Of a stretch of 58,729 bases of DNA, positions 1 to 41,989 are shown piece after piece (the stretch's first letter is position 1; the number at the start of each line of letters is the position of its first letter). The position numbers and the translations under genes are program-made. The notes beneath the pieces were generated by a model. The model saw nothing but the letters and a program-made list of their open reading frames with translations. It was not told the DNA's origin and searched no databases. The stretch is from Bacillota bacterium. GTDB taxonomy: Bacteria; Bacillota; Clostridia; Christensenellales; CAG-917. The DNA is taken from contig JBNMJA010000001.1 in NCBI GenBank assembly GCA_050873585.1, positions 1 through 58,729 of the forward strand. The letters run 5' to 3'.

Positions 1-365
1 AAATTAGGGTTGCCATTCAAGGGGTGCTTTCGCATTATTCATCTGTTTGGACGCTTTATTCGTTTCATATAGCGAATAACTGTGTCAGAGCCGCCCGCTT
101 GTCAACTCATTTACGCTTACTAAATTGGGGTTGCCAATCGGGCGGCTCTTTCTTGTTCTTCATCTATTTGAGATCTTATTCAAGAACGATAGTTTGTTTT
201 TCATCCAAATATCGCGACCGTTTTACGGTTGTTGAACGAATACCGAAGCCAAAGACATTGCAACTCATTTACGCTTAGTAAATTGGGGTTGCCATTCAAG
301 GGGTGCTTTCGCATTATTCATCTATTTGAGACCTTATTCTAAACTAGTTCGTTGAATAACTGATA
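1..365 (+). repeat. Cluster of tandem and fragmentary copies of a ~105-130 nt palindromic intergenic element (apex variant B)
   Basis: Near-identical strings AAATT(A/G)GGGTTGCCATTCAAGGGGTGCTTTCGCATTATTCATCT occur at 1-45 and 280-325. A complete copy lies at 66-170, with arms CGAATAACTGTGTCAGAGCCGCCCG and CGGGCGGCTCTTTCTTGTTCTTCATC. Arm fragments lie near 193-215 and 349-365. The same family recurs at 8 other loci in this window. Confidence 0.85.
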
Positions 366-401
366 ATTGTATGATGTGACATTAATGTTGTTTTAGGGGT
401 C

Positions 402-2447
402 TTGTTAAGAGTTAATAAGTATGATAATATAGTCTTGAGTAGGACGGATGACTATATGAGGATTACAAAAAAATACTATAATAAGCGAAGGCACAAGTTT
501 TATATTGAAAGAACTTGCAATGATGGACATGTTTTGACAAATGAGTATGATTCATTTGTTAATTTTTATAAGGGCGCAAAAGGAGATTTGTGTTTTGCCG
601 ATTTACTTGATTATGACTTTGCAGATGTTAATTTATCCCGATACAATTTTTCAGGTGCAAAACTATCATCGGAAATTAGACAAAAACTTAATATCTATGA
701 TAATGATTTGCATATTCAGTTAGGACAAAATGTGCGTGACGAGAAAACATTGTGTGTAAGGGAAATCCCACCAAAAAATAAATTCTTATGTGAACATAAT
801 AAGGCTATTTATAATGATAAAAATTTGTGTGTTTGTTATATCAGTGACCTGCATTTGGATGTGAAAATATTGAATAAGTATCCTGATGCTGTGAATACGG
901 ACGAGATTTATAGATATTTGCAAAAGAAAGTGTTGGCATTAAAGAACACTATTCCCCAAAATAGCAATTTGCAATATTGGAATAATATTAATTGTAGGAG
1001 AGTAAAGATAATCATAATAGGGGATGTCTCTTGTAATTTCGAAGTGTTCAAAACATTTTTTACTGTTTATAGAGAACATATAAACAATCAAACATTTTTT
1101 ATACTCGGAAATCACGAGTTGTGGGATAAGAAATTAATAGACGAATGTGGGACGTTAGAAAAAATAGTTGACAAATATCGCTCATTTTTGGCGAGCAAAG
1201 ATATCATGCTTCTTGAAAATCAATTGTATCTATCTGATTGCGACCCACACGTTTTATCTAATGAAGAAATTGTTTCTATGGACGATCAATCATTAGCATG
1301 TATTATAAATCGCAATAGATTTGTAGTATTTGGAGGTATTGGCTTTTCCGGATGGAATAATACATTTAATTGGAATAATGGTATATATAGATCCGCACCA
1401 TTGGATAGGAATGAAGAAATTGAGTTGTCAAAAAGGGTTGATTATATTTATCGCAAATTATCAAAAGTAGCGGAAGATTATAGCATTATTTGGGCAACGC
1501 ATATGCCAAAAGAAGATTATACCAGTGCACCATATAATAAGAAATGGGTGTATTTATCGGGGCATACGCACAAAAACATTTTTGAAGATAGCGATAGCAA
1601 ACGCATTTATGCCGACAATCAAGTTGGATACAAAAGATTGTCTTTTGGCTTTAAGCAATTTTGGATATCGCCTTTTGAAGATATGTTCGAAAGCAAAAAA
1701 GATGGTATATATGAAATAACAGCAGAACAATATCGCTATTTTTATCGTGCAATAGAGAAATCCATTGATTTTTACAGATCGTATTACAAGATATATATGA
1801 TTAAAAAATCAGGAATGTATTGCTTTTTAATGCAAAAAAAAGAATGTGGTGATATTAAGATTCTTGCAGGTGGAAATGTAAGGAACACGGGGCGAATGGA
1901 TGTAAAATACTTTTATGACAATTTAGAAAATTACACAATGTCATTAAATAAATATTTGAAAAAGTATACTGAATACCAAAAGGAAATAGCGCAATGGGTC
2001 TGTGATTTTGGAGGTGACGGAACAATTCATGGGTGTATAGTTGATATTGATTTTAATAATCATATATATGTTAATCCTATTGATGCAAAGATTACACCAT
2101 ATTGGGCAAGGAATATTTCATACAAATTTGTTTATAAAAATGTCGCAAGTCTTTTGGCTTATCATAGGCGAGATTTATATGACAAGTTATTGCAAGGCAA
2201 TGTTAGTGCAGAAAACAGTTTAGTTAAGATTGATGACCAAATTGAGTTTGACGATGACTTCGTTTCGGATACAAGCATATACAGATTGTCAAAAGTAGTT
2301 TATAATTTACAGTTTGCAGCAAGAGATAATATCGTAAGAGTGTGGTTCGATGATTTGCTCAATGCACCTTCAGAACAGAATGGGAAAGCAATAATAGAAC
2401 AATTAGCGCAATTGCCAGAATACAATGTGGATAATATAGAGCAGTGA
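402..2447 (+). CDS. Pentapeptide-repeat / calcineurin-like metallophosphoesterase fusion protein with an unassigned ~260 aa C-terminal region
   Basis: 681-codon ORF with TTG at 402 and an alternative ATG at 456. It has a pentapeptide-like run ADLLD-YDFAD-VNLSR-YNFSG-AKLSS. The full metallophosphoesterase motif set is present: SDLHLD, IIGDVS, GNHELW, ATHMP, GHTHKN. Hand-counted 60-nt samples give 28-30% GC. Confidence 0.8.
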   Translation: MLRVNKYDNIVLSRTDDYMRITKKYYNKRRHKFYIERTCNDGHVLTNEYDSFVNFYKGAKGDLCFADLLDYDFADVNLSRYNFSGAKLSSEIRQKLNIYDNDLHIQLGQNVRDEKTLCVREIPPKNKFLCEHNKAIYNDKNLCVCYISDLHLDVKILNKYPDAVNTDEIYRYLQKKVLALKNTIPQNSNLQYWNNINCRRVKIIIIGDVSCNFEVFKTFFTVYREHINNQTFFILGNHELWDKKLIDECGTLEKIVDKYRSFLASKDIMLLENQLYLSDCDPHVLSNEEIVSMDDQSLACIINRNRFVVFGGIGFSGWNNTFNWNNGIYRSAPLDRNEEIELSKRVDYIYRKLSKVAEDYSIIWATHMPKEDYTSAPYNKKWVYLSGHTHKNIFEDSDSKRIYADNQVGYKRLSFGFKQFWISPFEDMFESKKDGIYEITAEQYRYFYRAIEKSIDFYRSYYKIYMIKKSGMYCFLMQKKECGDIKILAGGNVRNTGRMDVKYFYDNLENYTMSLNKYLKKYTEYQKEIAQWVCDFGGDGTIHGCIVDIDFNNHIYVNPIDAKITPYWARNISYKFVYKNVASLLAYHRRDLYDKLLQGNVSAENSLVKIDDQIEFDDDFVSDTSIYRLSKVVYNLQFAARDNIVRVWFDDLLNAPSEQNGKAIIEQLAQLPEYNVDNIEQ

Positions 2448-2486
2448 GTCTAAATGTGGGTATTATCTCTAGTTTGTATAAGCAAT

Positions 2487-3041
2487 TTACTCGTTCATTA
2501 TCAAAAAATAGTCTGTAAGTCTTTCGGGGGTGTCGGCGAAGGCGGTGGAGTCCCAATATTCGACCAAAAGCACGAAATTTTCGATTATTGAATTGATTTT
2601 CAGAGATTTTGGAAGATCTTTGCCGATTACGAAATTGTTTTCAACGCAGGCGGTTGCAAATTCGGCAAGTTCGCCACGCAGATAGTTGAGAAAAGTGTCC
2701 TTGCTTTGCGAGAGCAAAATTGCGTGGACGAGTGCTTTTTCGTCGTGCAAGTGATAGAAGATGTGCGTTATGAAGTGCTTGTAATCGAATATCGACGATT
2801 TTGAAAAATCGTGGCTTTGCTCTTCTTCCACGGAGTGTGAAAAGACGTGACCGAATATCGTCGTGCAAATGGATTTGAGCAAATCCTCTTTGGTTTTGTA
2901 GTGGGCGTAAAACGTGCTGCGTGCCACGCCGCTTTTGTCCAAAACGTCTTGGATTCGTACGTCGGAATACTCTTTTTCAAGCAAAACTTCGGCAAATGCG
3001 TTGTAAATTTTCTCTGTCGTTGCGTTTATCTTTTTGTGCAT
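2487..3041 (-). CDS. TetR/AcrR-family transcriptional regulator
   Basis: 184 aa. The N-terminal HTH IQDVLDKSGVARSTFYAHYKTKEDLL is typical of TetR. An RBS AGAGGTG and a TGaTATAAT -10 lie upstream on the minus strand. The gene is divergent from the ABC operon. Confidence 0.85.
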   Translation of the reverse strand: MHKKINATTEKIYNAFAEVLLEKEYSDVRIQDVLDKSGVARSTFYAHYKTKEDLLKSICTTIFGHVFSHSVEEEQSHDFSKSSIFDYKHFITHIFYHLHDEKALVHAILLSQSKDTFLNYLRGELAEFATACVENNFVIGKDLPKSLKINSIIENFVLLVEYWDSTAFADTPERLTDYFLIMNE

Positions 3042-4698: not shown

Positions 4699-6297
4699 GT
4701 GAATATGAAAACGAAACGTAAAAACGGAGTTTTGATTCTTGTTGCAATTATGTTTGTCGTCGTTGCGACGGCAACGCTTTTTGCGTGCAATCCGAAGGAC
4801 GACGGTAGAAAAAACGTTCTAGTCGTAGGAACGACGCTCGAAATAGATTCGCTCAACAGGTTGGACGTGTCGGGCGGTGCGCCCGGATATAATTTCGACA
4901 AAATCGCGTCGACGGTATCTCAAGTTTCGGCAGTAAGCAAAATCGACGGTCGGTACGTCGGGGTGGATTGCGATTATGCGGTTTCAGAGGACGGCAAAGA
5001 GGTCACGCTCACGCAAAAAAACGGATTTAAGTGGCACGATGGCAACAACGTGACGATTGACGACGTGGAATTTTCGCTGTCATCGCTTGCCGAAGATTGC
5101 CAAAGCATAAAAAAGAGAGGCAACTCGCTCGTGTTTGCGCTGTCCGTGCCTTCGGACACCTTCCTTGAAAAAGCGGCGAGCGTTACGATAATGCCAAAGC
5201 ATATTTTCGATGGAAAAACCAAGGACGAGGTGACCGACGAACAATCCGTCGTCGGCGCAGGTCCTTTCAAATTCGTCAAATTCGACAAACCGTCGGGAAC
5301 GGTCACGTTTGAGAAATTTGCCGATTATCCGTATGCAAGCGATATCGAATTCGAAAAAGTGATATTCAAAAAATACAACTCGCAACAGGTGTTGGCATTG
5401 GCTTTGAAGAGTGGAGAAGTCGATTTGATTTACAACTATTCAAAAGGACTTACGAGCGAAGAGATTGCGGCACTCGGCGCGGCAAAAGACGTCCGCGTTA
5501 TTTCGCAATCCACTAAAGCGGTGCCTAAGGTGTTGTTTTTCAACAACCAAAAAATGACGAACGTCAACGTTAAACGCGCAATTGCGCTGTCTATCGACTT
5601 TGACAAAATCCGCTCGACGTTTGCCTCCGCATCGGCGTCGCCGGCTAGGGAAGGTTTCGTCGGAGAGGGGATTTTCGGGTACAAGGAAACGCCCGTGTGG
5701 AAGCGTGACCTTCAAAAAGCAAAAGAGTTGCTTGAAAAGGAAGGTTATTCGGCTTCGAATAAATTTTATTTCGAACTCCTCGTTCACTCGGGTACGGACG
5801 ACGCGCAATACGCTCTTTTGCTCAAAACGCAGATAGAGGAAAACGGCATCGTGAGAGTCAATCTCGTTGAAAAGGGTAGCGATTGGCAACAGTATTATCA
5901 GGCAGGCAACCATATGGCAAGCCTTTGCAAAATCACCGCAAAAGGATACGATTTCGACGCAGGGTATGCGACGAGATACACGCTTGCTCAAAATACGAGT
6001 TTACTCGAAATTAAAAACCCCGTCGCGCACGGACAAATGATCGTCGAGGACGAGAGCGGCAATCTTACCGAATACGGAAAAATCATTTACGCAATGAAAG
6101 ACGCCTCGACGACAGCCGCTCTTGAAAAGGCAGTCGGAGAATATCAGGACTATATTGCCGCAAACGTTTTGTGCGTGCCGCTCTTTTACGACGGTGTGAG
6201 TTACGGTGTAAACGCAAATCTTGACGGATTCAGCATGGACGGCACTTACGGGATCCTGAACGTGGTGACTTTCAGAACGCTGAAAAGAAACCGATAG
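4699..6297 (+). CDS. Family-5 (peptide/nickel/opine type) ABC substrate-binding lipoprotein
   Basis: 532 aa with a signal peptide and lipobox LFAC. Its size and context, between the ATPases and the DppB/C-like permeases, fit this call. The start could be GTG 4699 or ATG 4705. Confidence 0.8.
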   Translation: MNMKTKRKNGVLILVAIMFVVVATATLFACNPKDDGRKNVLVVGTTLEIDSLNRLDVSGGAPGYNFDKIASTVSQVSAVSKIDGRYVGVDCDYAVSEDGKEVTLTQKNGFKWHDGNNVTIDDVEFSLSSLAEDCQSIKKRGNSLVFALSVPSDTFLEKAASVTIMPKHIFDGKTKDEVTDEQSVVGAGPFKFVKFDKPSGTVTFEKFADYPYASDIEFEKVIFKKYNSQQVLALALKSGEVDLIYNYSKGLTSEEIAALGAAKDVRVISQSTKAVPKVLFFNNQKMTNVNVKRAIALSIDFDKIRSTFASASASPAREGFVGEGIFGYKETPVWKRDLQKAKELLEKEGYSASNKFYFELLVHSGTDDAQYALLLKTQIEENGIVRVNLVEKGSDWQQYYQAGNHMASLCKITAKGYDFDAGYATRYTLAQNTSLLEIKNPVAHGQMIVEDESGNLTEYGKIIYAMKDASTTAALEKAVGEYQDYIAANVLCVPLFYDGVSYGVNANLDGFSMDGTYGILNVVTFRTLKRNR

Positions 6298-7340: not shown

Positions 7341-8197
7341 AGTATAGTAAGATTTATAATGCCAAACGGGCGCTTGCTCTTGCGATGTTTTTGCTTGGAA
7401 TCGCCGTAATCGCGACGTTTGCGGTTTTTGCGATATTCGGTGAGAAAATCGCGCCTTATTCTCCAGGTGAGAGTTTCGACAAATTTTTGCCTTGTTCGAG
7501 CGAGCATATCCTCGGCACGAACAATCTCGGATACGATATATTTTCTCAACTTGTCGTGGCAACGCGCTCTACGCTTATCGTGGGCGTGACGAGTGCGCTT
7601 GCATGCCTCGTCATCGGCGTGGCGATGGGGCTGCTGTCGGGATATATCGGCGGCGTGTGTTCGGAGGCTCTGAACGGCGTTATTAACTTCTTCCTGCTTG
7701 TGCCGATGCTTCCTGCGGCAATCGTTATTGCGGCGTATACGGGCGGCGAAAGAGGAGGAATTATCCTCACCATATCTTTGCTTTGTTGGTGCTCTACGGC
7801 AAGGGCGGTGCGAGCAAAAACAATGGCGGTCAAAAACTCCGACTACGTGCGTGCGCTCAAATCGCTCGGCTACGGCGGCGCGAGGATTCTCGTCCGTCAC
7901 ACATTGCCCAACGTTATGGACGTTGCACTTGCAAAATTCGTGCCGTCGGTTGCGAGTTGTATTATGGTTGAGGCAACGCTGAGTTTTCTCGGTATGGGAA
8001 GCGTGACGGATATAACCTGGGGAGTGATGATACAAAACGCTTTTGAATACGGCGGCATTACGTTGGGAAAGTACGCATGGATTATCGCGCCCGGCGCATG
8101 TATCGTATTGCTTCAACTGTCCGCCTATATGATAAGCCAATACGTTGACTTCAGACGTAAAATCGTGCAAGAAAGCACGTTGAAGTGTAAAGAATAA
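7337..8197 (+). CDS. ABC transporter permease (OppC/DppC-like)
   Basis: Multi-TM ORF. GTG 7337 is preceded by AGGAGGG and overlaps the upstream TGA (GTGA). The ORF track opens 27 nt earlier at 7310. Confidence 0.85.
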   Translation: MKYSKIYNAKRALALAMFLLGIAVIATFAVFAIFGEKIAPYSPGESFDKFLPCSSEHILGTNNLGYDIFSQLVVATRSTLIVGVTSALACLVIGVAMGLLSGYIGGVCSEALNGVINFFLLVPMLPAAIVIAAYTGGERGGIILTISLLCWCSTARAVRAKTMAVKNSDYVRALKSLGYGGARILVRHTLPNVMDVALAKFVPSVASCIMVEATLSFLGMGSVTDITWGVMIQNAFEYGGITLGKYAWIIAPGACIVLLQLSAYMISQYVDFRRKIVQESTLKCKE

Positions 8198-8233
8198 ACA
8201 AATGAAGTGCCGATTTAGGCACAAGGAGAAAAG

Positions 8234-9064
8234 ATGTGTCTTGGTGACCCGAATTGCAACTGCAATAAGATAAGCGACGTGAGAGCGCTCCGCGACGACG
8301 AGATTTTGTTTGGAAAAACGCATGCAAACAATGTGCGCGACGACCAAAGAACCGCCGCTGCAAGAGCGTGCGCAAAAGAGAAACCGTGCTATCAGACGTA
8401 TATGGATCTCGGCAATGCGCTTGCCTTTCAGATGCGTTATCACGAGGCTATAGAGTGTTTTGAAAAGGCAAAGAATATTTGTCCGAGCGACTACGTTGCA
8501 AGGCGTAAATGCGCGGGGAGATATCTCTCGACGCTACGCCTTGATGATGCGGCGGCAGAGTTTTCCTGGTGCGTCGAACACGCCGACGATACGCTTGACC
8601 CGAAATATATGCTAGGTTGCTGCAAATACTACGAGGGCAATTTCGACGAGGCAAAAGCACTGTTCGAGGAGTGTATAGACCTTGCAAAAGACAACGGAGA
8701 TATGTACGTTGCCTCGCTTTTCTGGACGGTTGCTTGCGACGTGCGCACGGGCAAAAATCCCGCAAGAGATATGCTCAAGTTTGACAGAACTATGGCGATA
8801 GGACATCACACGGGATATATGCAATCGCTCAAACTTTTCGATGGAGAATCGCTTGCAAGTTGCGATACGATTCCCGATGAGGACGAGCTTCAAAAGTGCA
8901 TATTCAATTACGGCGCTCACCTTTACTATATGTCGGAAGGCAACGCAATGCTTTCGGATTTGTTTTTGGTCAACACACTCAAACTCGACACGTATTTTTC
9001 GGCGTTCGCCTACCTTGGCGCATATACGGAATTCGTCGAAAAAAACGGAATGCCGCGCTTTTGA
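8234..9064 (+). CDS. Hypothetical Cys-rich TPR-like protein, last gene of the ABC operon
   Basis: 276 aa with RBS AAGGAG 6 nt upstream of the ATG. The N-terminus reads MCLGDPNCNC. Helical repeat-like segments are present (YHEAIECFEKAKNICP, GNFDEAKALFEECIDLAK). I recognise no catalytic motif. Confidence 0.65.
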   Translation: MCLGDPNCNCNKISDVRALRDDEILFGKTHANNVRDDQRTAAARACAKEKPCYQTYMDLGNALAFQMRYHEAIECFEKAKNICPSDYVARRKCAGRYLSTLRLDDAAAEFSWCVEHADDTLDPKYMLGCCKYYEGNFDEAKALFEECIDLAKDNGDMYVASLFWTVACDVRTGKNPARDMLKFDRTMAIGHHTGYMQSLKLFDGESLASCDTIPDEDELQKCIFNYGAHLYYMSEGNAMLSDLFLVNTLKLDTYFSAFAYLGAYTEFVEKNGMPRF

Positions 9065-9146
9065 GTATTGACAAATCGCGCATTCGGATTTATAAATATA
9101 ACGAAAAATCAACACGGCGCAAACCGTGAAAAGTTCGGGGGTATAT

Positions 9147-9704
9147 ATGAGAAAAGATTTCGGGGCAAAAACGTGGCTTTATCCTATGCCCGTGCTCATT
9201 ATCGCAAGTTATGACAAAGATGGCAAAGTGGACGCAATGAACGCCGCTTGGGGCGGTATCGGCGATTACGAACAAATCTCTATGTGCTTGTCCGCAGGAC
9301 ATAAAACCGTCAAAAACATTCTCGAGAAAAAGGCGTTTACGGTGTCCGTCGCAACGGAAAAATACGTCAAAGAATGCGATTATCTCGGGCTCGTTTCCGC
9401 AAACGACAATCCCGACAAATTTGCAAATACAGGATTTACAGTCACCCACAGCGCAAGAGTCAATGCTCCTATCATAAACGAACTTCCGTTTGCTCTCGAG
9501 TGCGAACTTATAGATTACGACGCGCAAACGGGCACGATGAGGGGACGCATCGTCAACGCATCTTGTGACGAGAGCGCTCTTACAGACGGCAAAATCGACG
9601 TGCAAAAACTTGCGCCCATCACCTTTGACAGCGTAAACAATGCGTACGTCGTGCTTGGTCGGAACGTCGGGAAAGCGTTTAAAGACGGGTTGCAAATTAA
9701 ATAA
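9147..9704 (+). CDS. Flavin reductase-like (flavoredoxin) FMN-binding split-barrel protein
   Basis: The N-terminus TWLYPMPVLIIASYDKDGKVDAMNAAWGG matches the flavin reductase-like domain pattern. ATG 9147 is preceded by GGGGGT. The ORF track opens at GTG 9126. Confidence 0.75.
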   Translation: MRKDFGAKTWLYPMPVLIIASYDKDGKVDAMNAAWGGIGDYEQISMCLSAGHKTVKNILEKKAFTVSVATEKYVKECDYLGLVSANDNPDKFANTGFTVTHSARVNAPIINELPFALECELIDYDAQTGTMRGRIVNASCDESALTDGKIDVQKLAPITFDSVNNAYVVLGRNVGKAFKDGLQIK

Positions 9705-9822
9705 ACAGAGAATAAATCTTCTGTAAATCGAGTAGCGGCAGTGCAAAATCCGCAACCGCCGTTGCTCGAAATGATGCAGGAAAGCAATGTGACCGCTTTC
9801 AAAAGATTTTTTATGAAATCGT

Positions 9823-9851
9823 TTGACAAACAATAATGTAAATGCTATTAT
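9823..9851 (+). promoter_or_regulatory. Sigma-A-type promoter for the tRNA pair (TTGACA-17-TATTAT)
   Basis: TTGACA lies at 9823-9828, followed by a 17-nt spacer and TATTAT at 9846-9851. This is 17 nt upstream of the tRNA-Ala 5' end. Confidence 0.65.
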
Positions 9852-9867
9852 CTTATAGCATTCACGT

Positions 9868-9943
9868 GGGGATATAGCTCAGTTGGTAGAGCGCCTGATT
9901 TGCATTCAGGAGGTCCTCGGTTCGAATCCGTGTATCTCCACCA
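9868..9943 (+). tRNA. tRNA-Ala (anticodon UGC)
   Basis: The hand-folded cloverleaf has acceptor GGGGATA/TATCTCC with a G3:U70 pair. The anticodon stem is CCTGA/TCAGG with loop TTTGCAT, and the T-loop is GGTTCGAATCC. An encoded CCA is present. Confidence 0.93.
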
Positions 9944-9950
9944 CCTATAT

Positions 9951-34771: not shown

Positions 34772-36559
34772 ATGAAACAACTCAACTCAAGCGAACTTCG
34801 CAAACTTTATCTCGACTATTACAAGTCCAAGGGCCACGCCGTCATAGGATCCGCGTCCCTTATTCCCGAAAACGACCCGACCGTGCTTTTCACCACGGCA
34901 GGTATGCATCCGCTCGTGCCTTATCTTTTGGGCGAGAAGCACCCGGCAGGCAATCGTTTGACCGACGTGCAGGTATGCGTGCGTACGGGCGACATAGACG
35001 AAGTGGGCGACGCCACTCACTGCACATTCTTCGAGATGCTGGGCAGATGGTCGCTTGGCGACTATTTCAAAGAGTATGCGATCTCTTGTTCGTACGATTT
35101 CTTGCTCAATCAACTCGAGTTTGACAAGGACAAATTTGCCGTGACGGTCTTTGCCGGCGACGAAGATTGCCCTCGCGACGAGGAAAGCGCGTCTTATTGG
35201 AAAGCGCAAGGCATCCCCGAGGATCATATTTTCTATTGCAACAAGAAGCACAACTGGTGGGGACCTGCCGGCATAACCGGACCTTGCGGACCTGACACGG
35301 AAATGTTCATCGACACGGGCAAACCCAAATGCTCGGACGATTGCTCTCCCGCATGTGACTGCGGCAAGTACGTCGAAATCGGCAACGACGTCTTTATGCA
35401 ATACTTCAAAAACGCAGACGGCACGTTCTCTCCGCTCAAGCAAAAGAACGTTGACGAGGGTATGGGGCTCGAGAGAATGCTCTGCATCCTCAACGGCTAC
35501 AAATCCGTGTACGAAACCGACCTCTTCGCCTTTGCAATCAAAAAACTCGAGGAACTCTCGGGCAAGAAGTACGGCGAGGACGAAACCATGGCCGTCGCAA
35601 TGCGCATAGTCGCGGACCACACTCGCACGGCAACCTTCCTTTTGGGCGATCCCAAGGGCATATCGCCCTCTAACGTCGACCAAGGCTACGTTTTGCGCCG
35701 CCTTATCCGCAGAGCAATGAGATATTGCAGAACGTTGGGCATCGACGACAGCGCGCTCGTGGAACTTGCAAAACTCTACGTCGCAAAATATGAAGAGGCG
35801 TATCCCTATATCAAAGAGAACGAGGGCAGAATCGTAAGCGAACTCGAAGCGGAAAAAGACAAGTTTGCAAAGACGATTGAGCAAGGTCTCAAAGAGTTTG
35901 ACAAAATCGTTGCACACCTTCCGCAAAATATGACGGTATTCCCGGGCAAGACCGCATTCAGACTTTATGACACCTACGGCTTCCCCATCGAGATGACGGA
36001 GGAACTCGCAAAAGAAAAAGGCTATACTCTCGACAAGGACGGCTACGACAAAGCGTTTGCCGACCATCAAGCACTCTCCAAAGCGGGAGCGGAGCAGAAA
36101 TTCAAGGGCGGACTTGCGGACGGAGGCGAACTCACCGCAAGACTTCACAGCGCAACACACCTTCTCAACGCCGCGCTCAAAGTCGTGCTTCACGACGACG
36201 GTATTCAACAAAAAGGCAGCAATATTACATCAGAAAGATTGCGTTTCGACTTCAACTTCCCGCGCCCGTTGACGCAAGAGGAAATTCAGCAAGTCGAGAA
36301 AGTCGTCAACGACGAAATCGCAAAAGACAGCGAAATCAAACTTGAAGAAATGTCCGTTGAAGAAGCCAAAAACGCGGGCGCAATCGGCGTGTTCGACAAC
36401 CGCTACGGCGACGTCGTCAAGGTTTATACGATAGGCATTTCCAAAGAAATCTGCGGCGGTCCGCACGCAAAACGCACGGGCGAACTCGGAAAATTCCGCA
36501 TCGTCAAAGAGCAGTCCTCGTCTGCAGGCGTAAGACGTATCAAGGCGGTTTTGGAGTAA
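34772..36559 (+). CDS. alaS: Alanyl-tRNA synthetase, short form lacking the C-Ala domain
   Basis: Class II AlaRS N-terminal motifs are present: LFTTAGMHPLVPY, FFEMLGRWSLGDYFK and MGLERM. The editing-site motifs HSATHLL and CGGPH are also present. The protein ends at 595 aa, soon after the editing core. Confidence 0.85.
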   Translation: MKQLNSSELRKLYLDYYKSKGHAVIGSASLIPENDPTVLFTTAGMHPLVPYLLGEKHPAGNRLTDVQVCVRTGDIDEVGDATHCTFFEMLGRWSLGDYFKEYAISCSYDFLLNQLEFDKDKFAVTVFAGDEDCPRDEESASYWKAQGIPEDHIFYCNKKHNWWGPAGITGPCGPDTEMFIDTGKPKCSDDCSPACDCGKYVEIGNDVFMQYFKNADGTFSPLKQKNVDEGMGLERMLCILNGYKSVYETDLFAFAIKKLEELSGKKYGEDETMAVAMRIVADHTRTATFLLGDPKGISPSNVDQGYVLRRLIRRAMRYCRTLGIDDSALVELAKLYVAKYEEAYPYIKENEGRIVSELEAEKDKFAKTIEQGLKEFDKIVAHLPQNMTVFPGKTAFRLYDTYGFPIEMTEELAKEKGYTLDKDGYDKAFADHQALSKAGAEQKFKGGLADGGELTARLHSATHLLNAALKVVLHDDGIQQKGSNITSERLRFDFNFPRPLTQEEIQQVEKVVNDEIAKDSEIKLEEMSVEEAKNAGAIGVFDNRYGDVVKVYTIGISKEICGGPHAKRTGELGKFRIVKEQSSSAGVRRIKAVLE

Positions 36560-36565
36560 GAGAGT

Positions 36566-37381
36566 ATGAAGTGCGACACTCACGTGCATAGCAACAATTC
36601 ACACGACGGAAAGTTGCCGATTTCGCAAATCGTCGAGATAGCCAAGGCTCAAGGTCTTTGCTATCTTGCAACGACAGATCACCTCGATTACGACTTCGAG
36701 TACGGCAAAAATCGTGCGCCCGTGAGTTGGCCCAATCTCAATCTCGAAAAATATTACGAAGCGTGGAAAAGCGCAAAACAGACACTTGACGAGGACAAAA
36801 ACAACACTTTAAACCTCTGTTTCGGCATTGAGGCGAGTTACGATTCGAGCCAAGCGGCAAAGGAAGCGTATCAAAAAACCATTGCAAAATATCCTTTCGA
36901 CGTGGTGATAAACTCGGTGCATTGCGTGGACGGCTACGACGTGTATTTCAAAATGGCGTTCCTTTTCAAAACGAAAAAGAGGGTGTATCGCAGATATCTC
37001 GAAACCATTCTCGAAAGCCTTGACGCACCCTATCCGTACGACATAGTCGCACACATAGGCTACATTGCCCACGGCGCGCCTTATCGCGACAAACTGCTCA
37101 GATACAAGGATTTCCCAAACGAGATCGACGCAATCCTCAAAGGCATCATCGCAAGGGGCAAAACGCTTGAGGTCAACTTCCATCACGAGATGGCGCCGCA
37201 AAGAGATATCATCGAACGATATTTTGAACTCGGCGGACGAAAGATAAGTTACGGCTCGGACGCACACCGCGGCGATATCTGCAAAAACTTCGACGAGGCG
37301 TGCAGAATGCTCAAAGAAATCGGCTTCACGCACTTGAGCACGTTCGTCAAGCACCAAGAAGTCCTCGTTCCAATCGAATAA
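36566..37381 (+). CDS. PHP-domain phosphoesterase (HisJ-family histidinol-phosphatase-like)
   Basis: The N-terminus reads CDTHVHSNNSHDG. Later His/Asp motifs are present (TDHLD, IAHIGY, GSDAH). Confidence 0.8.
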   Translation: MKCDTHVHSNNSHDGKLPISQIVEIAKAQGLCYLATTDHLDYDFEYGKNRAPVSWPNLNLEKYYEAWKSAKQTLDEDKNNTLNLCFGIEASYDSSQAAKEAYQKTIAKYPFDVVINSVHCVDGYDVYFKMAFLFKTKKRVYRRYLETILESLDAPYPYDIVAHIGYIAHGAPYRDKLLRYKDFPNEIDAILKGIIARGKTLEVNFHHEMAPQRDIIERYFELGGRKISYGSDAHRGDICKNFDEACRMLKEIGFTHLSTFVKHQEVLVPIE

Positions 37382-37644
37382 TCCACACACAAAAGACAGT
37401 TTCTATTCGGGAACTGTTTTTTTGTGCAAACTCAACCCAATAAAAACGGACTTTCATTTGTATATACTGTAGAAGGATTTTTTTAGCACGATAACAAAAT
37501 AAAAATAAGATATTCGGCAAGAAAATTGCTTGAATAAATACAAAAATTGAGGAGAAGAACTATGAAGATCAAAAGAATTTTAGTTGTAATGTTATTGCTT
37601 GTGCTTGTATGCACACTCTTCGTTGCTTGTAATGATGACAATGG
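37376..37644 (+). repeat. Direct repeat unit A1 (terminator + promoter/leader + signal-peptide codons) of the subtilase locus
   Basis: It is almost identical by eye to 38865-39135. Both begin GAATAATCCACACAC and end GATGACAATGG. Confidence 0.9.
37394..37423 (+). terminator. Rho-independent terminator after the PHP gene
   Basis: Hairpin GACAGTTTC-TATTCG-GGAACTGT is followed by T7. Confidence 0.8.
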
Positions 37645-38320
37645 CAACAAGGCAGATCCCGTTGCGCGACCGGCAGAGCAACCTGTGGAAAGAAAGCCGA
37701 CAGCAGATCCGAATCCAAACAATCCGTATGATTACGATCAGTATAACACTGATTTCAGTCAGGGAGATTGGAATTTTGACGGAACGGCAATTCTCATTTA
37801 CTTTACAAACACGGAAAGTTTGAACAACTTATTTTATGATTACGTGTTGGATGACTTTGACAAAGAAAAGTTCAGAAGTGTTGAAGATGCCCTACCATTT
37901 AATCTATCGACAATCAGAGAAAAAATTAAAAATGGGATTTTAGACACGGAAATCGAACGCTACAACAGAGAGTTGAGGCTTGAACTTGTCAATCCAAGCA
38001 AAGAAAACGTGTTAAGGTATATTGAAGAATTCAATCAGGACAAAGGGATAAAATGCTCTCAACCGGAGTTATACGGAAGTTGGCATAAAACCACAAGCGA
38101 TCCGGGTATAAATTCCCAACATAATGCTTTTCAACAAATAAGTCTTTATGATGCATGGGATATTACGACGGGTTCTACGAGCATTACGGTCGGACTAGTT
38201 GATTCGGGAATAAACAAAACACATGAGGAATTGATAGGAAATATTTCAAACATAAGTGCATGTTGCTATAGAGAGCAAGATATTCGGCAAGCAAATTGCT
38301 TGAATAAATACAAAAATTGA
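37562..38320 (+). CDS. Truncated subtilase paralog: lipoprotein signal + propeptide-like domain + first ~45 aa of the S8 domain (possible pseudogene)
   Basis: ATG 37562 follows GAGGAG. A lipobox LFVAC is present. The propeptide-like region is homologous to the other two cassettes. The S8 Asp-box VGLVDSGI is present. The frame then runs into the next copy of the shared leader sequence and stops. Confidence 0.6.
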   Translation: MKIKRILVVMLLLVLVCTLFVACNDDNGNKADPVARPAEQPVERKPTADPNPNNPYDYDQYNTDFSQGDWNFDGTAILIYFTNTESLNNLFYDYVLDDFDKEKFRSVEDALPFNLSTIREKIKNGILDTEIERYNRELRLELVNPSKENVLRYIEEFNQDKGIKCSQPELYGSWHKTTSDPGINSQHNAFQQISLYDAWDITTGSTSITVGLVDSGINKTHEELIGNISNISACCYREQDIRQANCLNKYKN

Positions 38321-38448
38321 GGAGAAGAACAATGAAGATCAAAAGAGTTTTAGTTGCAATATTATTGCTTGTGCTTGTATGCACGCTCTTCGTTGCTTGC
38401 AACGATGACAATGGTGTGGAACAGTTAACACGAAAACCTTGGGCTAAA
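38276..38448 (+). repeat. Partial direct repeat (leader + signal peptide + first mature codons)
   Basis: It matches 38996-39170 with few differences. It includes the RBS, MKIKR(V/I)LVA(I/M)LLLVLVCTLFVACNDDNG and EQLTRKPWAK. Confidence 0.88.
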
Positions 38449-38961
38449 CCTGATCTCGATAATAAATACGACGATTCGAAGGCGTACTCAAACGGAGATA
38501 GTATAGATACTTGGGAGTTTCAAGGAGAGTATATCCTAGTTGTGTTGACAAATAGCGAGAGCCTGAACAATTTGTTTTATGATTACGAGGTCGATGATTT
38601 TGGAAAAGATAAGTTTATCAAAATCGAAAACAGACGATCTGAATCATTGGAAAAAATGCGCAATCAAGTCAAAAACGATATTGAATACGATTCACAAGAT
38701 ACAGACACAATCAATCCTAAGGAGTTCACGCGTAGTGTTAAGTTGACATTGAAGTATCCGAGTAGAGAAAATGCTATTACGTACATAAACGCATTGGAAT
38801 CCTTATACTACGTTTTGTATGCTGTCCCGGATTCGGAAATTGGGGGCTCATGGTTTACATCTTTGAATAATCCACACACAGAAGACAGTTTCTGTTCGGG
38901 AACTGTTTTTTTGTGCAAACTCAACCCAATAAAAACGGACTTTCATTTGTATATACTATAG
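38332..38961 (+). CDS. Truncated subtilase paralog: lipoprotein signal + propeptide-like domain only (possible pseudogene or stand-alone propeptide)
   Basis: ATG 38332 follows GAGGAG. The ORF ends after the propeptide-like ...LYYVLYAVPDSEIGGSWF. Its last ~30 codons read through a duplicate of the intergenic sequence found at 37376-37470. Confidence 0.55.
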   Translation: MKIKRVLVAILLLVLVCTLFVACNDDNGVEQLTRKPWAKPDLDNKYDDSKAYSNGDSIDTWEFQGEYILVVLTNSESLNNLFYDYEVDDFGKDKFIKIENRRSESLEKMRNQVKNDIEYDSQDTDTINPKEFTRSVKLTLKYPSRENAITYINALESLYYVLYAVPDSEIGGSWFTSLNNPHTEDSFCSGTVFLCKLNPIKTDFHLYIL

Positions 38962-39135
38962 AAGAATTTTTTTAGCACGATAACAAAATAAAAAAACAAG
39001 ATATTCGGAAAGCAAATTGCTTGAATAAATACAAAAATTGAGGAGAAGAACTATGAAGATCAAAAGAATTTTAGTTGCAATGTTATTGCTTGTGCTTGTA
39101 TGCACGCTCTTCGTTGCTTGCAACGATGACAATGG
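38865..39135 (+). repeat. Direct repeat unit A2 of the subtilase locus
   Basis: See 37376-37644. It includes a second copy of the terminator hairpin and the leader. Confidence 0.9.
38884..38912 (+). terminator. Duplicated rho-independent terminator inside the 3' end of the second cassette ORF
   Basis: Hairpin GACAGTTTC-TGTTCG-GGAACTGT is followed by T7, a copy of 37394-37423. Confidence 0.7.
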
Positions 39136-40894
39136 AGGTGAACAGTTAACACGAAAACCTTGGGCTAAATCAGATCCAAACAACCAGTATGATTTGCTGT
39201 CGGATTCGCAAAGAATCGACTATAGCATAATGGACTTCGATGGAGAATACATTGTTGTCATTTTGACAAACAGCGAATCACTAAACAACTTATTCTATGA
39301 TTACAAAGTAGAAGATTTTGGAGAAAACTGGTTCAAAGAGGCGGAAGTGCTAGATGCTGTAAGCGCAGATAAATTGGCTCGTATTCGTAAGCAAATCAAA
39401 AATTCAATAGCGTATGACTCAAATGATCCGCAAATGATAGATCCCGGCACTTATACGCGCGAAGTGAAGCTATATCTCAAAGAACCGGGAAAAGAAAACG
39501 CCTTGAGATATGGGGCAGAATTACTAAAAAACGATTACGTACGCAATGTTGAGCCGGATACAATCGGCGGCGTATGGTTTGGAACAACAAGTTCCGACCC
39601 GCAAATTGCAGATCAATGGGGCTTGGAAAAAATAAAAGCTTTCGATGCATGGGATATAACAACTGGTTCATCACGAGTAACAGTTGGTCATATCGATTCG
39701 GGAATATCTAGGTCACACGAGGATTTAGCAAGTAATGTGTCAACGACAGGGTATTCTGATGAAAGGGAAAATCCGTTTTCAGACACGGCAAATCATGGAA
39801 CAAGAACAGCTGGTGTTATTGGGGCAGTTGGCAATAACGGGAAAGGCGTAAGCGGTGTATGCTGGAATGTAAATATTGTGTCACTAAAATCTTGTTTTGG
39901 ATCTAGAACAGAGGATGCACAATTGGTAATAAATGCTATCGAGTACGCAAAAAACAATAATATAAAGTTGTTAAATTTTTCGGGAGGATTCTATGAAAGC
40001 GCAGAATTTGATAACAAGTATAAAGAGCCTTTACGCAGTGCTATCCAATCATACAATGGATTAATTGTGGTGGCTGCGGGAAACAGCGGATACAATATTG
40101 TTAACGAGAATGCCTCTGGTATAAAATTATATCCTCAAAGTTTTGAGCTGGATAATGTTTTAGTAGTTGGAGCAACAGATCGTGATGATACTGCGTGGAA
40201 TAATTCTGATGGAGTATCAAATTATGGTAAGTCTGTTGTAGATTTATTTGCACCAGGAGTAGATATCCAGACAACAAGTGCCGCATCTGAAAAAGCATAC
40301 GGTCAAGTAACGGGTACTTCATTGGCAGCGCCATTTGTTACCGGTGTTGCGGCACTTATGTTGTCGATAGAGCCTAATTTGACCGCTGAACAATTGAAAT
40401 CGAGAATTATGTCAACGGTAGATCCTGTGCCTGCGCTGTCAAACCTTTGTGTTTCGGGCGGTAGACTCAATGCCAAGAAAGCGGTTGAGGCTCACGGACA
40501 CAATTTGACCACTTGCACGTACACAAGCAACGGAGTAAGAAGAGGGCATAGCGTCAGTTGCGATTTCTGCAGTTATACCGACACCGAAGTGCACAACTGG
40601 AGTCCTGTGAAAGTTCCGAAGACGGAGATTGTGAAGTATCATATCTGCACCAAATGCTTGGAAAAAACCGAGATTATAGAAATTCCCCATCCGTCATCGT
40701 TGCTTGCGCCAAACGTGCTTGCGTTGATAAATGAGAAAGAGAGCGTGACGAGCGGAGATTTCGATATCGAAATAACCAAAGACGTTGCGATAGTCAAAAA
40801 AGACGGCAAGTATTATCTTATGATTGCTTGTGACGACGACGGCAACCCTGTAGCGGATTTGAGCAGGGTGATCAGAAAAGACGAAGTCATTTGA
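39053..40894 (+). CDS. Subtilisin-like serine protease (peptidase S8) lipoprotein with N-terminal propeptide and Cys/His-rich C-terminal extension
   Basis: ATG 39053 follows GAGGAG. A lipobox LFVAC is present. The propeptide ends LLKNDYVRNVEPD. The catalytic triad motifs are VGHIDSGI (Asp), NHGTRTAGVIGA (His) and GTSLAAPFVTGVAAL (Ser). Confidence 0.9.
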   Translation: MKIKRILVAMLLLVLVCTLFVACNDDNGGEQLTRKPWAKSDPNNQYDLLSDSQRIDYSIMDFDGEYIVVILTNSESLNNLFYDYKVEDFGENWFKEAEVLDAVSADKLARIRKQIKNSIAYDSNDPQMIDPGTYTREVKLYLKEPGKENALRYGAELLKNDYVRNVEPDTIGGVWFGTTSSDPQIADQWGLEKIKAFDAWDITTGSSRVTVGHIDSGISRSHEDLASNVSTTGYSDERENPFSDTANHGTRTAGVIGAVGNNGKGVSGVCWNVNIVSLKSCFGSRTEDAQLVINAIEYAKNNNIKLLNFSGGFYESAEFDNKYKEPLRSAIQSYNGLIVVAAGNSGYNIVNENASGIKLYPQSFELDNVLVVGATDRDDTAWNNSDGVSNYGKSVVDLFAPGVDIQTTSAASEKAYGQVTGTSLAAPFVTGVAALMLSIEPNLTAEQLKSRIMSTVDPVPALSNLCVSGGRLNAKKAVEAHGHNLTTCTYTSNGVRRGHSVSCDFCSYTDTEVHNWSPVKVPKTEIVKYHICTKCLEKTEIIEIPHPSSLLAPNVLALINEKESVTSGDFDIEITKDVAIVKKDGKYYLMIACDDDGNPVADLSRVIRKDEVI

Positions 40895-40907
40895 CGCACC
40901 GTTTAGG

Positions 40908-40945
40908 GCACGCGCGCAAATTGCGCGCGTGCTTTTGCGTTTGTC
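40908..40945 (+). terminator. Rho-independent terminator
   Basis: Hairpin GCACGCGCGCAAATTGCGCGCGTGC is followed by TTTTGCGTTTG. Confidence 0.8.
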
Positions 40946-41158: not shown

Positions 41159-41989
41159 ATGAAAAAGAATCTCGAAAAAATATTTGCTTCTTGCTCGATA
41201 GTCGTGGCAATCATTCTCATTATGGTGCTTGTCGTGACGGCGTTCGGCGGCATTGACGCAACCGAATTTGACAGCAAACTCGTCAGAGGACTGATCATTA
41301 CGCTCGCAATACTTTATCTCGTTCTTTCGATCATCACTCTAGTGCTTATCTTCGTCAACAGCGACGTCGTCAAAGACATTACGCTCCGCGTGGAAAAGGG
41401 CGGCAGTGTGAGAGTGACCTCGCAAGTCGTCACCAAGTTCGTCAAGAGCACTTGCAAACAGATCGAGGGCGTAAAGTGCCAAAAGGTCGCGCTTGTCAGC
41501 GACGAATACGGCGTTCGCCTCAAAGTCAACGTCAAGGTTGTGGACAAGGACGTTCTGGAATCGGAAATGTATTTGCGCACTTTGCTCGAGGACGTGTTCC
41601 TCGGAGAATTCGGCTTCAAGTTCAGCTCGATAGAAATCAAAGTTATGGCACTCACGCCCAAGTATAAAGCGGATCAGGCGGACGTTCAGGCAAAGGTTGA
41701 AAAGAAGCTCGCCGAAATGAAAGACAAAGAGGAAAAAGCGGAACAAGAGATTCAACCCGAAGAAGGCGAGCAACAAGCCGAAGAAGTTGAGCTCGAGCAA
41801 GTCCAATCCGAACAAGCAGAGGGCGAAGAGACGGCGGAAGAAGCGCAAGACGCACAACCCGAAGAGGGCGAGGCCGTTGAGGAATCCGAAACTACGGAGG
41901 ACGCTCAACTCGAAGAAGAATCCGAGCAAGCGCACGAGGCTGAAGCCGCTCAGGAAACCGATGCGGAAACCGACGAAAAGGCGGACTAA
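41159..41989 (+). CDS. Asp23/Gls24-like membrane-anchored stress protein with Glu/Gln/Ala-rich tail
   Basis: RBS GAGGTG is present. Two N-terminal TM segments are followed by a core, VRVTSQVVTKFVKSTCKQIEGVKCQKVALV...VRLKVNVKV, that resembles Asp23-family topology. The C-terminal ~90 aa are low-complexity E/Q/A. Confidence 0.6.
   Translation: MKKNLEKIFASCSIVVAIILIMVLVVTAFGGIDATEFDSKLVRGLIITLAILYLVLSIITLVLIFVNSDVVKDITLRVEKGGSVRVTSQVVTKFVKSTCKQIEGVKCQKVALVSDEYGVRLKVNVKVVDKDVLESEMYLRTLLEDVFLGEFGFKFSSIEIKVMALTPKYKADQADVQAKVEKKLAEMKDKEEKAEQEIQPEEGEQQAEEVELEQVQSEQAEGEETAEEAQDAQPEEGEAVEESETTEDAQLEEESEQAHEAEAAQETDAETDEKAD

Follow-up and report, generated by a model that had tools for sequence, protein, structure and literature searches.

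A polymorphic lipoprotein-subtilase locus of uncultured gut Clostridia with truncated, candidate stand-alone pro-domain genes

Introduction

In Streptococcus pyogenes the propeptide-like inhibitor Spi is encoded beside the cysteine protease SpeB, and the Rhs/CDI polymorphic toxin loci carry orphan modules, which are 3' tips located downstream of the full-length gene, together with a separate immunity gene. For the subtilases, stand-alone propeptide-like inhibitors are an established class, with Pleurotus POIA1, yeast PBI2, Arabidopsis SPI-1 (MEROPS I9), Toxoplasma MIC5 and Plasmodium SUB1-ProM as examples, and the stand-alone examples given are all eukaryotic (PMC6993865). Here we describe a bacterial locus found at positions 37376 to 40894 of a 58,729-nt stretch of DNA (the window; all coordinates below are positions in it) from a Bacillota bacterium of the Clostridia, in which two truncated subtilase genes, cassettes 1 and 2 (cas1 and cas2), are followed on the same strand by one intact subtilase gene, cassette 3 (cas3). 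No description of such cassette arrays was found in the literature searched, which is a weak negative.

The explanation that we favour, and to which we give somewhat better than even chances, is that cas1 and cas2 are recombination-shuffled fragments of alternative alleles that have been kept as stand-alone lipoprotein pro-domains, probably binding or inhibiting subtilases in trans. The anatomy of the locus, the origin of the fragments from intact alleles, their recombination, their polymorphism and the purifying selection acting on them were all observed.

Results

Anatomy of the three cassettes

All three cassettes are located on the forward strand. In cas1 (37562-38320, 252 aa), the signal peptide is followed by a full N-terminal (pro-)domain, here of type T12 (profile hidden Markov model (HMM) coverage 1-185), and by approximately 50 codons of the family S8 (subtilase) domain, including the Asp motif. 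cas2 (38332-38961, 209 aa) has a signal peptide and, again in full, an N-terminal domain, in this case of type T13, and is cut approximately 8 codons past the conserved W-x-T motif. cas3 (39053-40894, 613 aa) encodes an intact lipoprotein subtilase with an N-terminal domain of type T09, and is followed by an intrinsic terminator (40906-40934; -24.1 kcal/mol, z = -3.9). Since cas1 keeps the Asp motif only and cas2 has no S8 domain, neither of them is a protease. Beyond cas1 to cas3, no further copies of the N-terminal domain were detected by domain profile in the window.

Each cassette starts with the same module, comprised of a 56-nt leader, a ribosome-binding site (RBS) and signal-peptide codons: module 1 (37506-37645; RBS GAGGAG at 37549-37554, 28 signal-peptide codons MKIKRILVVMLLLVLVCTLFVAC), module 2 (38276-38415; RBS at 38319-38324) and module 3 (38997-39136; RBS at 39040-39045). 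With a repeat finder and a three-way alignment, the shared repeat was delimited to 37506-37685, 38276-38455 and 38997-39176; cas2 and cas3 are 95% identical over these 180 nt, and the cas1 module is near-identical to the others over approximately 140 nt, until the AATGG of codon 28. The three open reading frames (ORFs) all begin with GAGGAG-N7-ATG followed by a lipoprotein signal peptide (MKIKR-hydrophobic-LFVAC-N), in which all of 17 aligned cassettes share the lipobox residue Cys23 and Asn24, Cys23 being nearly invariant in 49 full-length homologues as well. Judged by this signal peptide with its lipobox Cys, all three products are predicted bacterial lipoproteins. Terminator-like matches at 37600, 38370 and 39091 are located inside the signal-peptide codons and were dismissed as spurious.

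A second, 130-nt repeat precedes cas1 and cas3 only. Its first copy (segment D3a, 37376-37505), opened by the last codons of the upstream hisJ-family gene, contains the hisJ stop codon, an intrinsic-terminator hairpin with U-run (37391-37422; -13.8 kcal/mol, z = -4.4) and the region 5' of the leader. It is 97% identical to the copy located between cas1-cas2 and cas3 (segment D3b, 38865-38994; hairpin at 38880-38911, -13.9 kcal/mol, z = -3.2). Both copies include the motif CCAATAAAACGG-N9-TTGTAT(A/T), found 5' of the first cassette (37436-37470) and again in D3b (38925-38959), which is invariant across five species (alignment A5) within intergenic DNA that is otherwise not alignable; this motif may be a promoter or a regulator site. 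Module 2 has no terminator or D3 segment at its 5' side, where only an 18-nt spacer (GCATGTTGCTATAGAGAG, 38258-38275) and the 56-nt leader separate cas2 from the body of cas1. The body of cas1 reads through the junction at this spacer (J1) to a TGA (38318-38320) that overlaps the RBS of cas2, and the cas2 start codon follows 11 nt past the cas1 stop. At its other end, cas2 runs into the duplicated segment, where the hisJ 3' end, the terminator and the region upstream of the leader supply the codons of a 32-residue tail.

An earlier note on this DNA, made from the sequence alone, had proposed three cassettes with a common 5' module of which only the third is complete, and the repeat finder, the alignment and the Pfam PF00082 match of cas3 bear this out. 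Its view of the cassette bodies as homologous but strongly diverged (measured here at 68-72% nucleotide identity), and of cassette 2 as fused to a duplicated PHP-gene 3' end and terminator, likewise holds. The proposed promoter/leader/signal-peptide module stands for the leader and signal peptide, present in three of the three cassettes, but not for its upstream part, which is limited to cas1 and cas3. The G+C content of the locus, given there as about 33%, was measured at 0.365-0.42, versus approximately 0.47 around it.

Synonymous differences per synonymous site (pS) amount to 0.05-0.22 in the 28 signal-peptide codons versus 0.81-0.91 in the core of the N-terminal domain, so that the modules are of far more recent common origin than the bodies.

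The cas3 protease

cas3 is, by its sequence, a complete family S8 protease: it matches Pfam PF00082 at E = 8e-43 (residues 207-462), and among 49 homologues the catalytic residues expected of this family, an Asp-His-Ser triad and an oxyanion Asn, are conserved, D215, H248 and N344 being invariant and S423 nearly so. It is composed of the N-terminal domain (approximately residues 60-170), a flexible linker (172-178), the S8 domain (approximately 185-480) and a Cys/His-rich C-terminal domain (488-613), modelled as a beta domain. The AlphaFold2 (AF2) model, built on a 49-sequence alignment, has a mean predicted local distance difference test score (pLDDT) of 86.8, and both the sequence and the fold of cas3 match subtilisins and thermitase in the PDB (Foldseek E = 6e-27 for deseasin, TM-score of 0.92 to thermitase). 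PADLOC and NCBIfam returned generic S8 matches only, below curated cut-offs where these exist, and no defence system or named family; an exact look-up of the cas3 protein gave no match.

The C-terminal domain (40514-40891), which has no Pfam match, displays the conserved residues C503, C506, C532, C535, H483, H499 and H514, and may bind zinc. In one related locus (L011), the protease gene (8024-9949) carries an internal tandem duplication of approximately 30 residues of the C-terminal region (HNIATCTYTNLGF...).

The N-terminal domain

The domain kept by the truncated cassettes is located between the signal peptide and the S8 domain. The AF2 models of cas2, built on a 26-sequence alignment, and of cas3 agree on a compact alpha/beta domain at residues approximately 63-168, with four strands and three helices. 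For cas2, the mean pLDDT per 10-residue block is approximately 78-95 from residue 61 to 170 and drops below 50 from residue 171 to the end at 209, the 32-residue tail being predicted as disordered; for cas3, the linker at 172-178 (GGVWFGT) is of low confidence. Residues 156-457 of cas3 align to residues 58-345 of unprocessed pro-subtilisin E, reaching its last propeptide strand, and residue 2 of thermitase aligns with residue 179 of cas3. These two alignments place the likely processing site near W175-T178, a region kept in every truncated cassette. The structural alignment of full-length cas3 to pro-subtilisin E covers 432 columns, with a root-mean-square deviation of 24 A. A domain profile recovered 940 cluster representatives, 176 of them at E up to 1e-10, mostly N-terminal in S8 proteases of between 500 and 1700 aa, which points to a widespread subtilase N-terminal domain without a Pfam match in the members tested.

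Related loci and structural haplotypes

The exact cas2 protein, which spans the junction to the duplicated hisJ end (junction 2), is recorded in 40 blocks of the collection, and ten contigs fetched from human and pig gut metagenomes display the same three-cassette layout wherever the upstream sequence suffices; this recurrence in independent contigs rules out an assembly artefact. A search for cas2 homologues returned 23 short proteins without Pfam domains, the absence of longer proteins despite the shared signal peptide being regarded as a limitation of the word index. From the contigs of these homologues and from scans of reference genomes and metagenomes, 44 related loci (L001 onwards) were collected. 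Those with enough flanking sequence are all located at one syntenic site in metagenome-assembled genomes of uncultured gut Clostridia, e.g. CAG:238 and UMGS1170. A scan of JGI metagenomes with a pattern combining the J1 spacer and the module gave no match; the follow-up scan with a protein pattern recovered 11 loci, whose layouts are of the same kinds as above.

In a count with the N-terminal-domain profile over six or three reading frames of the related loci, 37 copies were full-length and 43 truncated but intact, the latter representing 26 distinct sequences, and two further cassettes were disrupted. Their order is constant: zero to four truncated cassettes are followed downstream by one or two full-length genes, as illustrated by L011 (four truncated, one full-length), L014 (one truncated, two full-length) and L023 (one full-length only). 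Tandem pairs of full-length genes are present in L014, L017 and L019. Based on flanking genes that are 95-98% identical to those of the window, L001, L002, L004, L005, L014, L023, L025 and L027 belong to the same species as the window, versus flanking identities of 86-89% for L011 and 78-84% for L013 and L015.

Clustering of the domain cores at 75% identity distinguished at least 26 types, ten of which occur both truncated and full-length; T13 and T05 are known in truncated form only (2 and 5 sequences, respectively). The window's species alone displays at least six structural haplotypes: T12-T13 (both truncated) followed by full-length T09 in the window, T04-T13 (both truncated) with full-length T09 in the L001 group, truncated T04 with full-length T07 and T12 in L014, a single full-length T04 in L023, truncated T04 with a frameshifted T09 in L025 and L026, and truncated T07 followed by an unknown cassette in L027. 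One order, T04-T07-T12-T13-T09, fits all six, which hints, from few haplotypes, that differential deletion from longer arrays contributes. Between strains whose flanks are 96-98% identical, the N-terminal domains share only approximately 40% and the catalytic domains 54-72% of their amino acids.

The truncated cassettes are pieces of these alleles. The body of cas1 is 96.4% identical at the nucleotide level, until position 38257, to the 5' 612 nt of an intact gene for a 597-aa protease in L014 (8775-10568), a locus whose alaS-like gene is 97.8% identical to that of the window; the match extends approximately 50 codons into the predicted mature domain. The cas1 bodies of the window and of L001-L005 share only 73% identity, while strains with flanks 2-4% apart have cas2-cas3 blocks that are 99.5-100% identical, module 2 being 100% identical in L001, L002, L004 and L005. 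A recent tandem duplication followed by divergence in place is ruled out by the contrast in pS between module and bodies and by the occurrence of cas1 as an intact allele elsewhere; the cassette bodies are different, pre-existing allele or paralogue types.

Recombination at the locus

Several junctions bear direct marks of recombination. L025 and L026 carry all four diagnostic single-nucleotide polymorphisms of module 2, continue with the cas3 body from just after AATGG, and lack the cas2 body and D3b: their haplotype is a deletion that arose when modules 2 and 3, which are 97% identical, recombined by crossover. Junction J1 (...ISNIS|ACCYREQDIRQANCLNKYKN*) is common to bodies of types T12, T04 and T07, and in the T07 cassettes with the J1 tail the switch is located at the conserved AWDITTG box. 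Junctions J3 (AWDITT|AFTSAVISQR*) and J5 (...MIKRKRR*) each carry several body types as well. The 18-nt spacer of J1 is normal sequence just 5' of the module at internal unit boundaries: it is also found 5' of the modules of the second and third genes of L014, right after the upstream stop region CGCACCGTTTAG. It is thus the native inter-gene spacer, and cas1 appears to have arisen by internal deletion in a tandem pair of genes. Junction 2 connects a T13 gene, cut approximately 8 codons past W-x-T, with the hisJ stop region at TTGAATAATCCACACAC. An incoming allele integrated by homology-facilitated illegitimate recombination would fit this anatomy, but so would unequal crossover plus deletion, and the anatomy does not distinguish the two.

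Over 54 full-length proteins, the identities of the N-terminal and S8 domains are weakly correlated (Spearman 0.29), and in many pairs the S8 domains are at least 85% identical versus only 43-44% for the N-terminal domains. In the window's species each N-terminal type is paired with its own catalytic type, which indicates that exchange there moves whole alleles. The catalytic region of cas3 is only approximately 65% identical to those of the L014 proteases, versus 96.7% for the C-terminal 454 nt. L015 and L016 carry their cassettes in swapped order. In L002, the left edge of the locus (5601-5830, hisJ stop through cas1 signal peptide) is 91.5% identical to that of a different species, L011 (5185-5410), versus approximately 80% to the window, the corresponding stretch of L004 being window-like; this points to import between species. 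The recombination at the 5' module and the structural polymorphism anticipated in the earlier note are therefore both observed, the former in the L025/L026 junction and in the three bodies sharing J1, the latter in the haplotypes of a single species.

Integrity and selection of the truncated cassettes

Every truncated cassette in the fetched loci ends after the full domain (HMM positions 1 to approximately 185). At least ten distinct classes of junction and tail were found, all located 3 to approximately 75 codons past the invariant Trp, and the domain profile detected no partial-domain remnants in any locus except for copies cut by contig ends. The motif TN(S/T)ESLNNLFYD..DF is conserved in 17 of the 17 aligned cassettes, truncated and full-length, with 11 strictly invariant columns, and R110, R134, L138, L140, W174 and T176 are conserved in both forms alike.

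The ratio of nonsynonymous to synonymous substitution rates (dN/dS) in the domain core is 0.10-0.35 for truncated pairs, 0.08-0.33 for full-length pairs and 0-0.66 for mixed pairs. Each of five truncated pairs, four of which share a junction, displays a deficit of nonsynonymous changes (p = 1e-4 to 3e-3; pooled p = 3e-13) at dS values of up to 0.2-0.4. Pairs at dS 0.2-0.4 contain neither stops nor indels in approximately 145 codons, a length over which, at this divergence and by our own estimate, neutral sequence would carry several stops and indels. In L014, the J1 cassette has acquired a nonsense codon in the remnant of the S8 domain just past the N-terminal domain, which itself is intact, and one T05 junction has been kept in at least three different genomes. 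The truncated cassettes are thus under purifying selection and mostly not decaying.

Interpretation and alternative explanations

In our reading, the locus is a multi-allelic lipoprotein-subtilase site, at which cas1 and cas2 are 5' fragments of alternative alleles or paralogues and cas3 is the resident intact gene. The fragments derive from tandem full-length arrays, such as those still extant in some relatives, whose upstream copies repeatedly lost their catalytic part, partly by illegitimate junctions to the inter-gene spacer (J1) or to the duplicated hisJ-terminator segment (J2), and in other cases by homologous crossover in one of three conserved boxes, namely the leader/signal-peptide module, AWDITTG at the start of the catalytic domain, or the C-terminal domain together with the spacer 3' of it. 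Through these same boxes, bodies can be swapped, deleted or imported, also across species boundaries. cas1 and cas2 would share a transcript, begun in the segment 3' of the hisJ terminator, and be translationally coupled. As the RBS, start codon, lipoprotein signal peptide and complete domain are all kept, their products would most likely be made, exported, lipidated and displayed as membrane-anchored stand-alone pro-domains. In the full-length protease the domain would be cleaved off as a propeptide, as the alignments suggest; by analogy with subtilase propeptides and with the stand-alone inhibitors named above, the stand-alone forms may bind type-matched subtilases in trans, as inhibitors or possibly as chaperones.

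Types T12, T04 and T07, for which the full-length form is known, match the proteases of other strains of the same species and not the resident enzyme, and the targets may, with low confidence, be non-self variants. An extension of our proposal, which we regard as speculative and rather unlikely, is a protease/anti-protease system between strains, in which each strain releases one subtilase variant and orphan pro-domain lipoproteins displayed on its membrane neutralise the variants of conspecific competitors.

Several results weigh against the proposal of constrained, inhibitory pro-domains. Membership of the N-terminal domain in the I9 propeptide family is unsupported: Pfam PF05922 (I9) matched none of the 17 cassettes at E up to 10, the only related match being a weak one to Fervidolysin_NPro-like (E = 0.19), and was absent in ten distant relatives as well; a profile search of PDB sequences gave no propeptide match, and Foldseek with the cas2 model gave weak ferredoxin-like matches only (E >= 0.037), with no propeptide among the best 50 listed. 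The sigma-70 consensus scan made no call in the shared segment, the conserved motif lying outside its consensus. L025 and L026 share a frameshift that reduces the protease to a pro-domain-only ORF of 208 aa, and the part of the locus that was sequenced contains no intact protease gene. A truncated cassette of L032 carries a nonsense codon and one of L033 a 1-nt frameshift, both inside the domain (contigs at approximately 5-6x coverage), so that truncated cassettes are dispensable in some lineages, and the conspecific L023 and L043 have none. The low dN/dS could also stem partly from recent descent from, or repeated replacement by, full-length alleles under selection. Of the three readings offered in the earlier note, stand-alone propeptide-like lipoproteins nevertheless remain the best supported, by ORF integrity and dN/dS, although the resemblance to I9 propeptides that it had suggested looking for was not detected by sequence or by Foldseek. 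Decaying tandem duplicates are disfavoured by the intact ORFs and by dN/dS values of approximately 0.1-0.35 and not near 1, with 26 distinct intact truncated sequences versus two disrupted ones.

The L025/L026 frameshift itself is a 1-nt deletion in the T09 protease just after AWDITTGS, observed identically in two independent samples (L025, 6293-7513).

A rival reading as neutral debris, in which a recombining and diversifying locus keeps producing stubs that are intact only because they are young or overwritten, and whose products are without function, is in our judgement unlikely but deserves serious consideration. It agrees with the similarity of several truncated cassettes to intact conspecific alleles (98-99%, besides the 96.4% of cas1), with the disrupted cassettes and the loci devoid of truncated copies, and with a cas2 tail that consists of disordered junk from a terminator segment. 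It accounts poorly for the junction-sharing truncated pairs, which at dS 0.2-0.4 are free of stops and indels and have dN/dS values of 0.26-0.35, no higher than for full-length genes, for the maintenance of T05 and T13 as truncated-only types, and for ten or more independent truncations that all spare the whole domain. The cassettes might instead serve as a recombination reservoir: the variable N-terminal domain is flanked by the module and the AWDITTG box, and crossover or gene conversion of an upstream cassette with the full-length gene would switch this domain in the protease, any activity of the products being secondary; this we hold to be improbable. The reassortment of N-terminal types with respect to catalytic domains, the occurrence of one type truncated in one genome and full-length in another, the order swap between L015 and L016, the crossover at the AWDITTG box and the homogenised module are all in its favour. 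However, no recombinase, invertase or diversity-generating element was found among the flanking genes listed for the loci, RBS, start codon and signal peptide are kept, unlike in classic silent cassettes, whole alleles appear to be exchanged in the window's species, and a reservoir role alone would impose no constraint at the amino-acid level.

Finally, the truncated products might act on the resident cas3 only, as extra chaperones in trans or as a membrane brake. They are encoded directly 5' of it in the same orientation, in most relatives apparently as a single operon with gaps of 5-45 nt, and some propeptides inhibit non-cognate subtilases (PMC6993865). But cas3 already carries an N-terminal domain of its own, of another type and approximately 40% identical, and the number and type of truncated copies vary among strains with the same protease (L025 lacks cas2, and cas1 differs between the window and L001), which makes an exclusive action on cas3 very improbable. 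We retain the proposal of constrained pro-domain lipoproteins that probably act on subtilases in trans.

Flanking genes

The left neighbour of the locus is the gene for a hisJ-family PHP phosphatase (36566-37381, forward strand; Pfam PHP E = 1e-23, NCBIfam TIGR01856 score of 91.8 versus a cut-off of 90.2), which forms a conserved left flank, syntenic in all related loci. On the right are found the gene for an AmaP-like membrane protein, greA and lysS. The AmaP-like protein (41159-41989, 276 aa) has an acidic, repeat-containing C-terminal half with a direct repeat at 41744/41846, and is approximately 89% identical between strains, with indels, versus 95-98% for the other flanking genes. Upstream of hisJ, an alanyl-tRNA-synthetase-like gene (34772-36559) encodes 595 aa with tRNA-synt_2c and tRNA_SAD domains, a length kept in all related loci; canonical bacterial AlaRS is longer. 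At the beginning of the window (1-3000), the G+C content drops to 0.32-0.39, versus approximately 0.47 elsewhere.

Significance and comparison with known systems

If the truncated genes are functional, they represent a bacterial case of stand-alone subtilase pro-domain proteins and show how an inhibitor can be born by truncation of alternative alleles in a tandem array; apparent pseudogene fragments of proteases may then be selected products. The extreme diversity within the species and the shuffling of modules make the locus a candidate determinant of strain interactions in this uncultured gut clade of the Clostridia, since such diversity is usually tied to frequency-dependent selection by antagonism, recognition, phage or host pressure. 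Were a system between strains to exist, the orphan pro-domains would work as do orphan immunity genes in toxin systems, with an inhibitor derived from the enzyme's own pro-domain.

Like the I9 inhibitors, the truncated cassettes encode a small secreted module resembling a subtilase pro-domain, without catalytic domain, and SUB1-ProM also adjoins subtilase genes. Unlike them, they are predicted bacterial lipoproteins that arose by recent and repeated truncation of protease alleles and occur in arrays of one to four different types, polymorphic within a species; similarity to I9 is undetected by sequence or Foldseek, and inhibition is proposed by analogy. With Spi, the locus shares a bacterial gene for a pro-region homologue that adjoins the gene of a secreted protease, but Spi concerns another protease clan and is a single conserved gene, neither a lipoprotein nor derived from alternative alleles.

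As in the Rhs/CDI loci, partial variant copies are located beside one full-length polymorphic gene, a conserved segment serves as recombination anchor, and strong polymorphism within the species is combined with exchange between strains. In contrast, the fragments here are 5' ends, located upstream, and each of them has a translation start and a signal peptide of its own; a separate immunity gene is lacking, and the protease is not known as a toxin. Neisseria pilE/pilS and Borrelia vlsE likewise have partial copies with conserved borders beside an expression locus, as donors of variable segments; such silent donors are without expression signals and convert the expression site at high frequency, whereas every cassette here has an RBS, an ATG and a signal peptide, and is constrained at the protein level. 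Judged by these analogies, the locus appears closest in function to the stand-alone propeptide-like inhibitors, and in architecture to the orphan-module arrays and silent-cassette systems.

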